The notes under the pieces: model-generated
Seen by the model: only the letters and a program-made list of their open reading frames with translations
Databases searched by the model: none
Told to the model about the DNA's origin: nothing
Translations under genes and position numbers: made by a program
In this document: positions 9,067 through 11,183 of the stretch, in pieces
Layout: each line of letters starts with the position of its first letter
How positions within the stretch are numbered: the stretch's first letter is position 1
Source of the DNA: an uncultured Bacteroidales bacterium
Lineage (GTDB): Bacteria > Bacteroidota > Bacteroidia > Bacteroidales > UBA932
Length of the DNA: 64,000 nt
Direction of reading: 5' to 3'
NCBI GenBank assembly: GCA_905234475.1
Contig: CAJOHX010000026.1
Coordinates: 1,338-65,337, forward strand

Positions 9067-9903
9067 TTATTTTTTCTTCGCCTGGGCCTTCTTGCGCTCG
9101 ATGGTCTGGAGATTGGTCCTGGCGGCGTAGTCGTCAGGGTCGAGCTTGAGCGCCTTCCGGTAGTACTTGGCGGCCTGCTGGTCGTTGTGCTTGACCGCCT
9201 GCTGGTAGGATCCGAGGTTGTCGATGAAGGCGGGATTCTTCGGGAAATGCTTGCTCATCCGGTCGGACACCTCGCGGAAATACTCGTAGCTGGCGGGGCT
9301 GCCGATGCGGAAGAATTCGGCGCAGAGCTCGCCGACGCCCTGCTGGAAGATCTCGTCGTCCGCGGGTTCCCCGTCGATCGTCCAGTCCTTGCGGGAGGCG
9401 GCATGGCGCTTGACGAGCTCGATGAGCGCGGCGGCGGCCATGTCCGGGTATTCCTTCTCGTAGGCGGTCAGCGCCGAGATCCGCAGGAAGATGAAGCGCA
9501 ACTCATTGGGATGGAGGGAGATCTGCCGGTCGAGGACCCGCATCGCCTCGGCGAAGTCGTCCTCGTCGTAGAAGTCCTCCTGGAAGAAGTTGACGTCCTG
9601 CCCGTCGGCGTCCTTGAGGGTAAACGTGGGGGCATTGCCCAGGTAGCGGCGCTGCGTGCCCTTGGACACCATTTCCGTGCTCTGCGAGCGCTGGAAATAG
9701 TAGCTGAAACGCGCCACGGCCGCGGCCGGGTCGTCCGGGAAGGCCTCTTCCCAACGGTCGATCAGGGTCTCCACGCCGACGCCGGAGGCGCCGACGCTAC
9801 GCACCAGGCGCTCGTACCGGGCCTGGAACTCTTCAGGGCTGTTCTGCGCCGCAGCGGCGCTGCAAAGGGCGATCGCGGCGATCGCAAGGATCCATTTTCT
9901 CAT
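9067..9903 (-). CDS. Exported TPR-containing protein
   Basis: Start MRKWILAIAA (signal peptide) with ATGA overlap on the rsmF stop; C-terminal TPR AAKYYRKALKLDPDD. Confidence 0.75.
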   Translation of the reverse strand: MRKWILAIAAIALCSAAAAQNSPEEFQARYERLVRSVGASGVGVETLIDRWEEAFPDDPAAAVARFSYYFQRSQSTEMVSKGTQRRYLGNAPTFTLKDADGQDVNFFQEDFYDEDDFAEAMRVLDRQISLHPNELRFIFLRISALTAYEKEYPDMAAAALIELVKRHAASRKDWTIDGEPADDEIFQQGVGELCAEFFRIGSPASYEYFREVSDRMSKHFPKNPAFIDNLGSYQQAVKHNDQQAAKYYRKALKLDPDDYAARTNLQTIERKKAQAKKK

Positions 9904-11183
9904 ACGTTCATCAATATCCGGCGGCCCTTCGGGAGGAGGTTGTTGCATCGGGAACCGATGTTCTTGACGAATCCCAACGGGTGGCCGAGGTAGGTGACCA
10001 CATTGTAGCCGGGCGCGGCCTGCGGCAGCACGAGCGCATCCCGGTGGAGGAAGCGCAGGGCCGTCTGCCGGTCCACATCCACACACCGGTACGCATTCCT
10101 ATCAAATTTTATGCTCAACGCGTAGTCCGCGTCGGGGACGAAGTCCTTTCCAACCTGCGTGCCTTCGCGCAGGCCGCTGCGCAGCGGGTGCAGCGCCTCC
10201 AGGCCGGCCTTTTTCGCGACGGCTTGCGGGGCGGTTTTGCGGAGCACGCCGGCCCACTGCCCCTCGCCCGGCACGACGCCTGCTTCCAGCAGGTGCCCGT
10301 GGGGCGTGCGGCGCACGCCGGCGTCCTCGAATTCCGCCGCCGGCGGCAGGATCTCCCCGCCCAGTTCGGCCGCGGCCCACGCGAGGTTGTCGTCGTTCTC
10401 GGCGGCCTCGTAGGTGCAGGTGCTGTAGAGCAGGAAGCCGCCTTCGCGCAGCGCCGGCCACACATCCGCCAGGATGCGGCGCTGCCGGGCCGCGCAGAGC
10501 TCCACTACGGCGGGGCTCCATTCCTCGCGGGCGCGAGGGTCCTTGCGGAACATCCCCTCGCCGCTGCACGGCACGTCCGCCACGATCACGTCGAACCAGC
10601 CCGCCATGCGGGCAAAGGCCGCCGGATCCACGCTCGTCACGACCACATTCGGGTCGCCCCAGCGCGCCACATTGTCGTCCAGCACCCCCACGCGCGCCTT
10701 CATCACCTCGTTCGCCACCAGCACGAACCCGTCCCCGCACGCCTCCCGCAGCGTCGCCGCCAGATCCGTCGTCTTCCCTCCCGGTGCCGCGCACAGATCC
10801 AAGACCCGGACAACCGACGGCCCCTCGCTGCGCGGCGACCTGCCTCTGAAAACGTCCGGCTGCGCCGGACCCCTCCCATCTGACGATGGGCCCCTCCCTC
10901 TTACGATGCCGAGGGTGGCACGGTTTTCTGAGGCAGTCGCCGCCTCCGCTTCGGGGTCGTCGGGCTCGGCCGCGGAAAGGATTTTGCGGAAGAGGTGACC
11001 GACGTACATGGCGGAAGAGTCCTGGACATAGTAGCAGCCGGCGTGGAAGAGGGGATCGAGCGTGAAGACGGGACGCTCGGAGAGGATGCGGCCATAGGGC
11101 GACCAGGGGACAGGCGTCCCCTCGGGGCCGACCAGACCCTTGAACGGATTCAGACGGATCGCGACCGACGCCTCCTCCATCAC
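9900..11183 (-). CDS. rsmF: rRNA cytosine-C5 methyltransferase RsmF/NOL1, carrying an ~50-aa insertion
   Basis: YYVQDSSAM, VLDLCAAPGGKT, DVPCSGEGMFRK and YSTCT motifs, plus a C-terminal PUA-like region. Confidence 0.9.
   Translation of the reverse strand: MMEEASVAIRLNPFKGLVGPEGTPVPWSPYGRILSERPVFTLDPLFHAGCYYVQDSSAMYVGHLFRKILSAAEPDDPEAEAATASENRATLGIVRGRGPSSDGRGPAQPDVFRGRSPRSEGPSVVRVLDLCAAPGGKTTDLAATLREACGDGFVLVANEVMKARVGVLDDNVARWGDPNVVVTSVDPAAFARMAGWFDVIVADVPCSGEGMFRKDPRAREEWSPAVVELCAARQRRILADVWPALREGGFLLYSTCTYEAAENDDNLAWAAAELGGEILPPAAEFEDAGVRRTPHGHLLEAGVVPGEGQWAGVLRKTAPQAVAKKAGLEALHPLRSGLREGTQVGKDFVPDADYALSIKFDRNAYRCVDVDRQTALRFLHRDALVLPQAAPGYNVVTYLGHPLGFVKNIGSRCNNLLPKGRRILMNV
10814..10963. 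repeat. 150-bp multi-hairpin palindromic element inserted in frame in rsmF
   Basis: Imperfect terminal inverted repeats (CCGACGGCCCC/GGGGTCGTCGG and GCGGCGACCTGCCTC/GAGGCAGTCGCCGC) enclose three internal hairpins. Confidence 0.75.

Follow-up and report, generated by a model that had tools for sequence, protein, structure and literature searches.

Rickettsia palindromic elements (RPEs), and RPE-1 in particular, are palindromic repeats of approximately 100-150 bp, many of which lie in frame in housekeeping genes (Ogata et al. 2000, via PMC10969869 and PMC3733652), and the same two papers add that orthologues occur without the insert, that the extra peptide is compatible with the fold of its host, and that no transposase is known. 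MITEs, miniature transposable elements of the inverted-repeat type, carry conserved terminal inverted repeats and target-site duplications and have a recognisable parent insertion sequence (IS; PMC10969869), while the recoding intragenic invertons of Bacteroides are single-locus, presumably invertase-driven, and seen as mixtures within a culture (Chanin et al., PMC10028968). Here we describe a 150-nt nested palindrome that lies in frame in rsmF, the gene of a 16S rRNA m5C methyltransferase, at positions 10814-10963 of a 64,000-nt stretch (the window; contig CAJOHX010000026.1, positions 1,338 to 65,337, assembly GCA_905234475.1) from an uncultured Bacteroidales bacterium. A sequence-only reading of the window had likened this segment to RPEs and proposed a non-autonomous MITE or structured-RNA family that adds peptide modules to proteins. 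On the evidence below, the segment very probably belongs, as one of many copies, to a family of palindromic DNA repeats, dispersed and non-autonomous, that is carried by Bacteroidales of the Candidatus Cryptobacteroides type and behaves like RPEs. The likeness comprises a dispersed palindrome, in-frame copies in unrelated housekeeping genes, empty orthologues, a read-through peptide and the lack of a transposase.

The 2.3-Mb genome to which the window belongs (G000) contained ~13 copies by blastn and 17 by a covariance model built from 24 copies, and unrelated genes contained copies with 92-98% DNA identity. Twelve of the 17 copies lay in frame in open reading frames (ORFs) with Pfam domains on both sides of the insert, encoding RsmF, an XerC/D-like integrase, RNase R, a SpoU methylase, a GltD-like oxidoreductase, RibF, DsbD, an HI0933-like flavoprotein, PolA (DNA polymerase I), a CCA/poly(A) polymerase, UvrD/PcrA and an FAD-dependent protein; among the remaining five, one lay in an unnamed ORF and four were intergenic. 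The in-gene inserts were located between domains or in domain loops; within genes, permissive linkers or loops are the only places where copies persist. When the 50-residue peptide of the rsmF copy was searched against 5.8 billion proteins, 53 proteins were matched, distributed over at least 15 unrelated Pfam families. By blastn the element was also present in 65 of the 121 congeners sampled (Bacteroidales of the Candidatus Cryptobacteroides type from rumen and gut, of which G125 and G014 are the closest relatives of this genome), and the covariance model matched outside the genus in 1 of ~148 other genera of the order. An exact 27-nt core, comprising the third hairpin (H3) and its 3' tail, recurred in 105 stretches of one-genome-per-species data, mostly 'Bacteroidales bacterium' or 'Candidatus Cryptobacteroides' metagenome-assembled genomes (MAGs) from rumen and gut, and in at least 120 further stretches of metagenome contigs. 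The proposal of a multi-copy family that adds peptide modules to proteins is thus borne out by 17 copies here, hundreds in congeners and metagenomes, and in-frame copies in many unrelated proteins, as with RPEs; what might have spoken against it, namely a single copy, the same segment in all orthologues and no covariation, was not what we found. A literature search found no published description of such elements in Bacteroidales.

Two observations on the distribution of copies stand apart from these counts. The sole out-of-genus match was in G147, from another family of the order (C25:33404-33524, with two partial matches), and may reflect horizontal spread or a distant sister family. Two copies lie ~700 bp apart in adjacent genes of this genome (C3:77219-77354 and 78038-78170), one in the CCA/poly(A) polymerase gene and the other in the XerC/D-like tyrosine recombinase gene, inside the N-terminal SAM-like domain.

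In RsmF, Pfam analysis of the 427-aa ORF placed the insert between Methyltr_RsmF_N (residues 3-55) and Methyltr_RsmB-F (residues 126-266), and PDB sequence matches (RsmF-type, NOL1/NOP2/Sun family) resumed at query residue 120-125, just before the S-adenosylmethionine-binding motif. The RsmF orthologues of more than 10 congeners lacked ~49 residues exactly at the insert site, in agreement with the earlier view that a ~50-aa extra segment stands where RsmF enzymes have a short loop; in these congeners, residues 1-70 and 121-427 were matched on adjacent DNA, with ~9 residues at the junction compared to 58 here. An AlphaFold2 model of RsmF built with 17 orthologues (mean predicted local distance difference test score (pLDDT) 83.1, predicted template-modelling score 0.83) contained only one long stretch with pLDDT <50, residues 75-122, and on this model the insert is tolerated by the predicted host fold as a loop. 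The same loop carries other insertions: in the rsmF of G014 (L078:1626-1770) the element is followed directly downstream by another in-frame insertion, ~45 residues long and unrelated to it, and in that of G125 a small extra hairpin lies upstream of the element. The rsmF loop is a putative hot spot for palindromic insertions.

The element consists of an outer stem around three hairpins (H1-H3) separated by C-rich spacers, each feature lying where the earlier reading had placed it, and the 50-codon span that it had reported was indeed 150 nt long and stop-free, although its coordinates were one base off, the codon-aligned span being 10815-10964. The host gene and the parts of the insert are as follows.
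9900-11183, minus strand: rsmF, host gene of 427 aa from a GTG start, with the insert at residues ~71-120 (Pfam)
10814-10963: whole palindromic insert, its own '+' orientation (H1 to H3) on the + strand of the window and so antisense to rsmF; covariance-model score 147.6 bits
10814-10824: left half of the outermost 11-nt inverted repeat, pairing with 10953-10963 (91% complementary); inversion about its symmetry axis keeps the ORF open
10825-10831: left terminal motif of the YTCGYTNC type, unpaired with the right terminal motif; a subfamily motif common to 7 copies at different loci
10832-10853: left main arm, 22 nt with one bulged base, pairing with 10923-10943; in helix 1, 18 of 21 pairs are changed on both sides across copies
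10854-10870: H1, 7-bp stem and 3-nt loop; 99.4% paired, 2 covarying pairs
10875-10890: H2, 6-bp stem and 4-nt loop; a variable module and insertion/deletion hot spot with 3 covarying pairs, replaced by another H2 type in the orthologous G125 copy
10896-10922: H3 (10896-10915, 5-bp stem and 10-nt loop) and the 3' tail that follows it; the family's core, 27 nt long and near-invariant, whose exact 27-mer recurs in genomes and metagenomes
10923-10943: right main arm, 21 nt, pairing with the left main arm
10944-10952: right terminal motif of the YTCCRCT type, assigned by comparison of subfamily copies
10953-10963: right half of the outermost 11-nt inverted repeat, pairing with 10814-10824, with compensatory changes in the orthologous G125 copy
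The outer stem is composed of three helices (10840-10853/10923-10936, 10832-10839/10936-10943 and 10814-10824/10953-10963), which are mutually offset by a 1-nt bulge and an asymmetric internal loop. For the 171-nt stretch folded, the predicted energy was -99.3 kcal/mol as RNA (z = -4.85) and -52.3 kcal/mol as DNA (z = -5.27) relative to dinucleotide shuffles, and none of 200 shuffles matched the real fold.

To judge mobility, occupied and empty sites were compared between relatives. The RibF insert was absent in all five relatives examined, including the closest, G125 and G014; nine G125 insertions corresponded to empty sites in this genome; sister species differed in the sites occupied; and, as the earlier reading had suggested looking for, most orthologues have an empty site. 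These presence/absence patterns give good support to transposition as the probable origin of the copies. Over 110 nt the rsmF copy shared 98% identity with a copy at an unrelated locus of G125, compared to 82% with the orthologous G125 rsmF copy, which has a different H2 module; copies thus exchange sequence, H2 modules included. The nine filled/empty pairs of G125 and this genome and the RibF pair showed no consistent target-site duplication, and the ends could not be fixed to the base because the flanks, ~80-90% identical, were too diverged. In one subfamily TTCG is a candidate direct repeat of 4 nt, and the length is 1 mod 3 in 7 of 7 copies, which would fit a 2-nt addition or a 4-nt direct repeat; one intergenic copy has a candidate 9-10-bp repeat, with no consistent pattern across sites. 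The flanking sequences suggest that the target may be a short palindrome. The arms are copy-specific, only the innermost 4-6 nt and short end motifs being shared within subfamilies. We considered the arms as inverted duplicates of the target flank and rejected this origin, since the net insert lengths in RsmF and RibF require new DNA for both main arms, so that at most the outermost extension was copied from the host; the empty counterpart of one G125 site already had the left outer arm, and in rsmF native codons may be part of the outermost 11-mers. The dispersed-repeat part of the proposed MITE family stands, but the label MITE in its strict sense is not supported: the arms are not conserved terminal inverted repeats, and neither a clear target duplication nor a parent transposase was found. 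The family resembles classical MITEs (Correia, ERIC, Nezha and others) in being short, non-coding, non-autonomous, structured and multi-copy with occasional in-frame fusions, and differs from them in that neither conserved terminal repeats, nor a consistent duplication, nor a parent IS was found here.

The reading frame of the insert followed a strict rule. In a survey of 109 copies, 66 lay in long ORFs whose flanks show a coding GC pattern, and all 42 in '+' orientation used the frame containing PLTMPRVAR, while all 24 in '-' orientation used the frame containing RATLGIVRG, with the host frame preserved in 100% of the in-gene copies. The second stop-free frame available in each orientation encodes Cys/Trp/Arg-rich peptides and was almost never used, and ~11 ORF calls in other frames had mostly a non-coding GC pattern. 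The insert would accordingly be read through as a loop of roughly 40-60 residues, predicted with low confidence in the structural model. When inversions were simulated in the window, turning the core alone or the main stem alone introduced stop codons, and inversion about the axis of the outermost 11-nt repeat left rsmF open and produced the '+' frame of the other copies; the two frames in use are thus inversion partners, because only inversion of the whole element keeps rsmF open and yields the '+' frame. The two-frame rule would reflect both this interconversion and the Pro/Gly/Ser-rich nature of the peptides, the other open frames being Cys/Trp/Arg-rich.

Inversion of this kind was observed between genomes. 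At the rsmF site of G014 and two other species the element is reversed, end motifs and bulge included. When copies were sorted by the similarity of their flanks, 31 orthologous-site groups resulted, and both orientations occur in 18 of them, although one group, with nine members, may represent a larger repeat inside a single genome and not orthologous sites. The share of opposite-orientation pairs, which include metagenome loci, grew with flank divergence and reached ~41% below 90% identity:
flank identity at least 99%: 1 of 19 pairs
flank identity 97-99%: 3 of 21 pairs
flank identity 94-97%: 4 of 13 pairs
flank identity 90-94%: 9 of 27 pairs
flank identity 85-90%: 42 of 103 pairs
flank identity 70-85%: 87 of 210 pairs
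Clean flips were seen in GltD, where the insert of this genome is the G125 insert reversed, and in PolA, where G125 and a metagenome contig (L202 and L330) have 96.7% identical flanks and, after reverse complementation of one of them, 91.5% identical inserts. In the PolA flip the break points fall beyond the palindromic arms, where the insert ends, and the two ORFs remain open and encode unrelated loops. As the flipped segment includes non-palindromic ends, collapse of inverted repeats during assembly cannot explain the flips. All of this both-orientation evidence comes from comparisons between genomes or samples, and a metagenome scan with the copy-specific left arm of the rsmF copy, for the same species with a flipped core, returned no match. 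Flipping would proceed by excision and then re-insertion at the same site, or by recombination at short inverted repeats at the insert boundaries.

A bolder interpretation, which we regard as possible but clearly not probable, is that the element is a self-inverting coding cassette: an enzyme recognising H3 or the ends would turn the insert in place, or excise and re-insert it, on short time scales, so that essential enzymes, among them PolA, GltD and RsmF, carry either of two unrelated loops, with the stem offsets tuned so that only whole-element inversion keeps the frame. If true, housekeeping genes would show a new form of phase variation at the protein level, or a new mechanism of transposition in which the site is retained. 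A programmed intragenic inverton, in which a dedicated site-specific invertase flips the cassette within populations and the alternative surface loops serve as phase variation, appears unlikely to us. It would fit the occurrence of both orientations at the same site in 18 of 31 groups, even at 97-99% flank identity, as well as ORFs that are open in both states with frames that are exact inversion partners about the whole-element axis, and recoding intragenic invertons are documented in Bacteroides (PMC10028968). The present family, however, also occupies intergenic DNA and spreads to new sites, it has no invertase linked to it, and both peptides resemble unconstrained filler (pLDDT <40). Moreover, the recognition sites of invertases are normally conserved, whereas the inverted repeats here differ from copy to copy. 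In common with the Bacteroides invertons, the element is an intragenic segment flanked by inverted repeats that occurs in either orientation with the ORF kept and two protein variants encoded; it differs from them in being a multi-copy mobile family with copy-specific arms and break points at the insert ends, for which orientation was compared between genomes or samples only.

The complementarity of the arms pointed to upkeep at the DNA level. Across ~100 copies (arm lengths by local alignment), H3 and its tail were near-invariant, H1 and H2 varied with compensation, most copies had a conserved internal mismatch in the stems, and the arms, 20-50 nt long and different in sequence in each copy, were still complementary, with 2460 of 2635 aligned positions forming Watson-Crick pairs. 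In the gap-free alignment of 24 copies, 94.9% of cells were paired and 23 of 41 pairs were changed on both sides; double-change cells numbered 118, compared to 30.7 ± 4.9 in shuffles (0/500 reached 118) and 8-34 with slid partners, while only 7 cells were one-sided changes of the G-U type. The covariation analysis recommended on first inspection of the sequence thus gave strong support. Compensatory double changes were also present between orthologous RNase R copies of different species, between the outermost 11-mers of the rsmF copy and its G125 orthologue, and in an insertion common to G125 and G014 (three compensatory pairs in 18), which indicates that complementarity is restored in place. 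A templated process at the DNA level would preserve it, one arm serving as the model from which the other is copied or corrected, through hairpin mismatch correction or template switching.

This pattern bears directly on whether the segment is a functional structured RNA (a regulatory element, a ribozyme or an intron-like sequence) in mRNAs, possibly removed before translation, which we consider highly improbable. The very stable predicted fold and strong base-pair covariation would suit an RNA, as would the strand asymmetry of the arm mismatches (on the + strand, A.C 52 vs G.T 20 and pyrimidine-pyrimidine 96 vs purine-purine 7). Structural RNAs normally pass through G-U pairs, yet there are 7 G-U-type cells against 118 double changes, and the near-absence of G-U together with the presence of both orientations inside mRNAs (42 vs 24 relative to host genes) argues for maintenance at the DNA level and not as RNA. 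Besides, every in-gene copy keeps the downstream frame and avoids stops, neither of which an excised RNA would need, and an Rfam 15 scan of the region gave a best match of 18.7 bits, compared to a gathering threshold of 40. The structured-RNA half of the earlier proposal is therefore not supported, given changes that go from Watson-Crick to Watson-Crick pairs with almost no G-U, both orientations in mRNAs and no Rfam match.

Several observations weigh against the reading of the segment as a mobile, RPE-like repeat. Among the sites compared there was no consistent target-site duplication or conserved terminal inverted repeat, and transposition itself is consequently inferred from the presence and absence of copies at sites. 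Several opposite-orientation pairs with 97-99% identical flanks have arms that are only 65-78% identical, and pairs so diverged resemble different alleles, or insertions made separately into one site, and not simple flips. Translation of the insert is a prediction from conservation of the frame. The element could not be linked to any transposase, nuclease or recombinase; Y1_Tnp-like (PF01797-like) genes were more frequent in element-positive (54/65, 83%) than in element-negative genomes (28/56, 50%), but the relatives are not independent, which makes the co-occurrence weak evidence, and some element-positive genomes are 96-97% complete yet have no Y1_Tnp-like gene. Finally, all genomes are metagenome-assembled. 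That last point, the known tendency of palindromes to confuse de Bruijn assemblers and the predicted disorder of the insert would favour a non-mobile origin, as a lineage-specific low-complexity linker arisen in place or a palindrome-assembly artefact, which is nevertheless the least probable alternative of all, given copies 92-98% identical in unrelated genes, the same core in hundreds of independent assemblies, flips that include non-palindromic end segments outside the arms, and imperfect arms of ~20-33 nt, shorter than usual read lengths and assembly k-mers.

A separate observation concerns an 870-aa gene present in several species (L097/L348 and L130/L378), in which flanks 98-99% identical surround inserts of opposite orientation with arms ~65-78% identical; one of these pairs has clustered synonymous differences in ~25 nt of native codons beside the insert. 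By this comparison the insert region is evolving, or being exchanged, far faster than its surroundings.

Although RPEs, along with the intragenic palindromes discussed below, remain the closest known kind, the family departs from RPEs in several respects. They belong to another phylum and were compared by description and not by sequence, and the family here is GC-rich whereas RPEs are AT-rich, so that sequence homology is unlikely. The family also combines an inner hairpin that is invariant with arms that are hypervariable and self-correcting, is read in two fixed frames, each the inversion partner of the other, and undergoes in-place flipping of the whole element between close relatives, of which PMC10969869 and PMC3733652 describe no instance for RPEs. 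Intragenic repetitive extragenic palindromes (REPs), including the CGTC- and GTAG-tagged REPs (Di Nocera et al. 2013, PMC3733652), and the REPIN-RAYT systems are likewise found as palindromes inside ORFs, often of replication or repair genes such as UvrD and PolA, and share nested or dimeric hairpins with stems that vary within families; REP units, however, are 20-40 bp with an unpaired tag, whereas the element here is a composite of ~110-170 bp, and, in contrast to REPIN-RAYT systems, the RAYT-like gene examined in this genome does not have the repeat on its flanks. The pattern of NTS/dRS3-type hairpins (Ssn-related motif, SRM) matched none of the 17 copies.

To our knowledge, translated selfish palindromic DNA inside essential genes is a textbook phenomenon only for Rickettsia. 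The very probable RPE-like reading would extend this lifestyle, on a large scale, to Bacteroidales that live free in rumen and gut, where it involves roughly half of a genus with >120 species, and would add to it an invariant hairpin with self-correcting arms, a strict frame pair and frequent whole-element inversion that swaps peptide loops. Annotation and orthology pipelines will see the inserts as spurious 40-60-residue indels in core proteins, and the inserts themselves show where loops are permissive in enzymes, for example in PolA, RNase R and RibF. The family also offers a tractable system for how palindromes of bacterial chromosomes are maintained and flipped, and by which enzyme.

In the proposed mechanism, H3 would be the recognition site of the protein that moves or flips the element. 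A copy with a long interior was found neither in this genome (blastn and covariance model) nor among ~250 loci, and the transposase or nuclease gene flanked by the same ends, which the sequence-only reading had envisaged, was not found for this family. Candidate genes were examined individually and rejected. A link to RAYT was rejected for the 314-aa Y1_Tnp-like (HUH) ORF on contig C31 of this genome, which lies between two 107-nt direct repeats (L191:1225-1331 and 2297-2403), each with a 19-bp hairpin, in a REP-RAYT-like arrangement whose repeat is unrelated to the element. A DUF559 (PF04480) cassette, in which full-length relatives would have a small DUF559 gene in the central loop, was rejected: among 121 congeners only one has the domain, within an ORF of 891 aa, and the sole PF04480 match of this genome lies inside a 1820-aa ORF. 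A link to Ssn and its SRM was rejected likewise, the published SRM pattern having 42 matches in the genome and none in the 17 copies.

The genome does contain a second palindromic repeat family, made of GTCAT-headed hairpins that fit the start of the Ssn-related motif of Chenal et al. These hairpins stand on both sides of a small GIY-YIG (Ssn-like) ORF of ~100 aa located outside the window (L255, C7:45076-48297), with a triple tandem repeat upstream, and judged by sequence the arrangement resembles that of an Ssn nuclease and the hairpin motif that goes with it (Chenal et al. 2025). Related copies of the GTCAT-headed hairpins occur in the window at 20881-54103.

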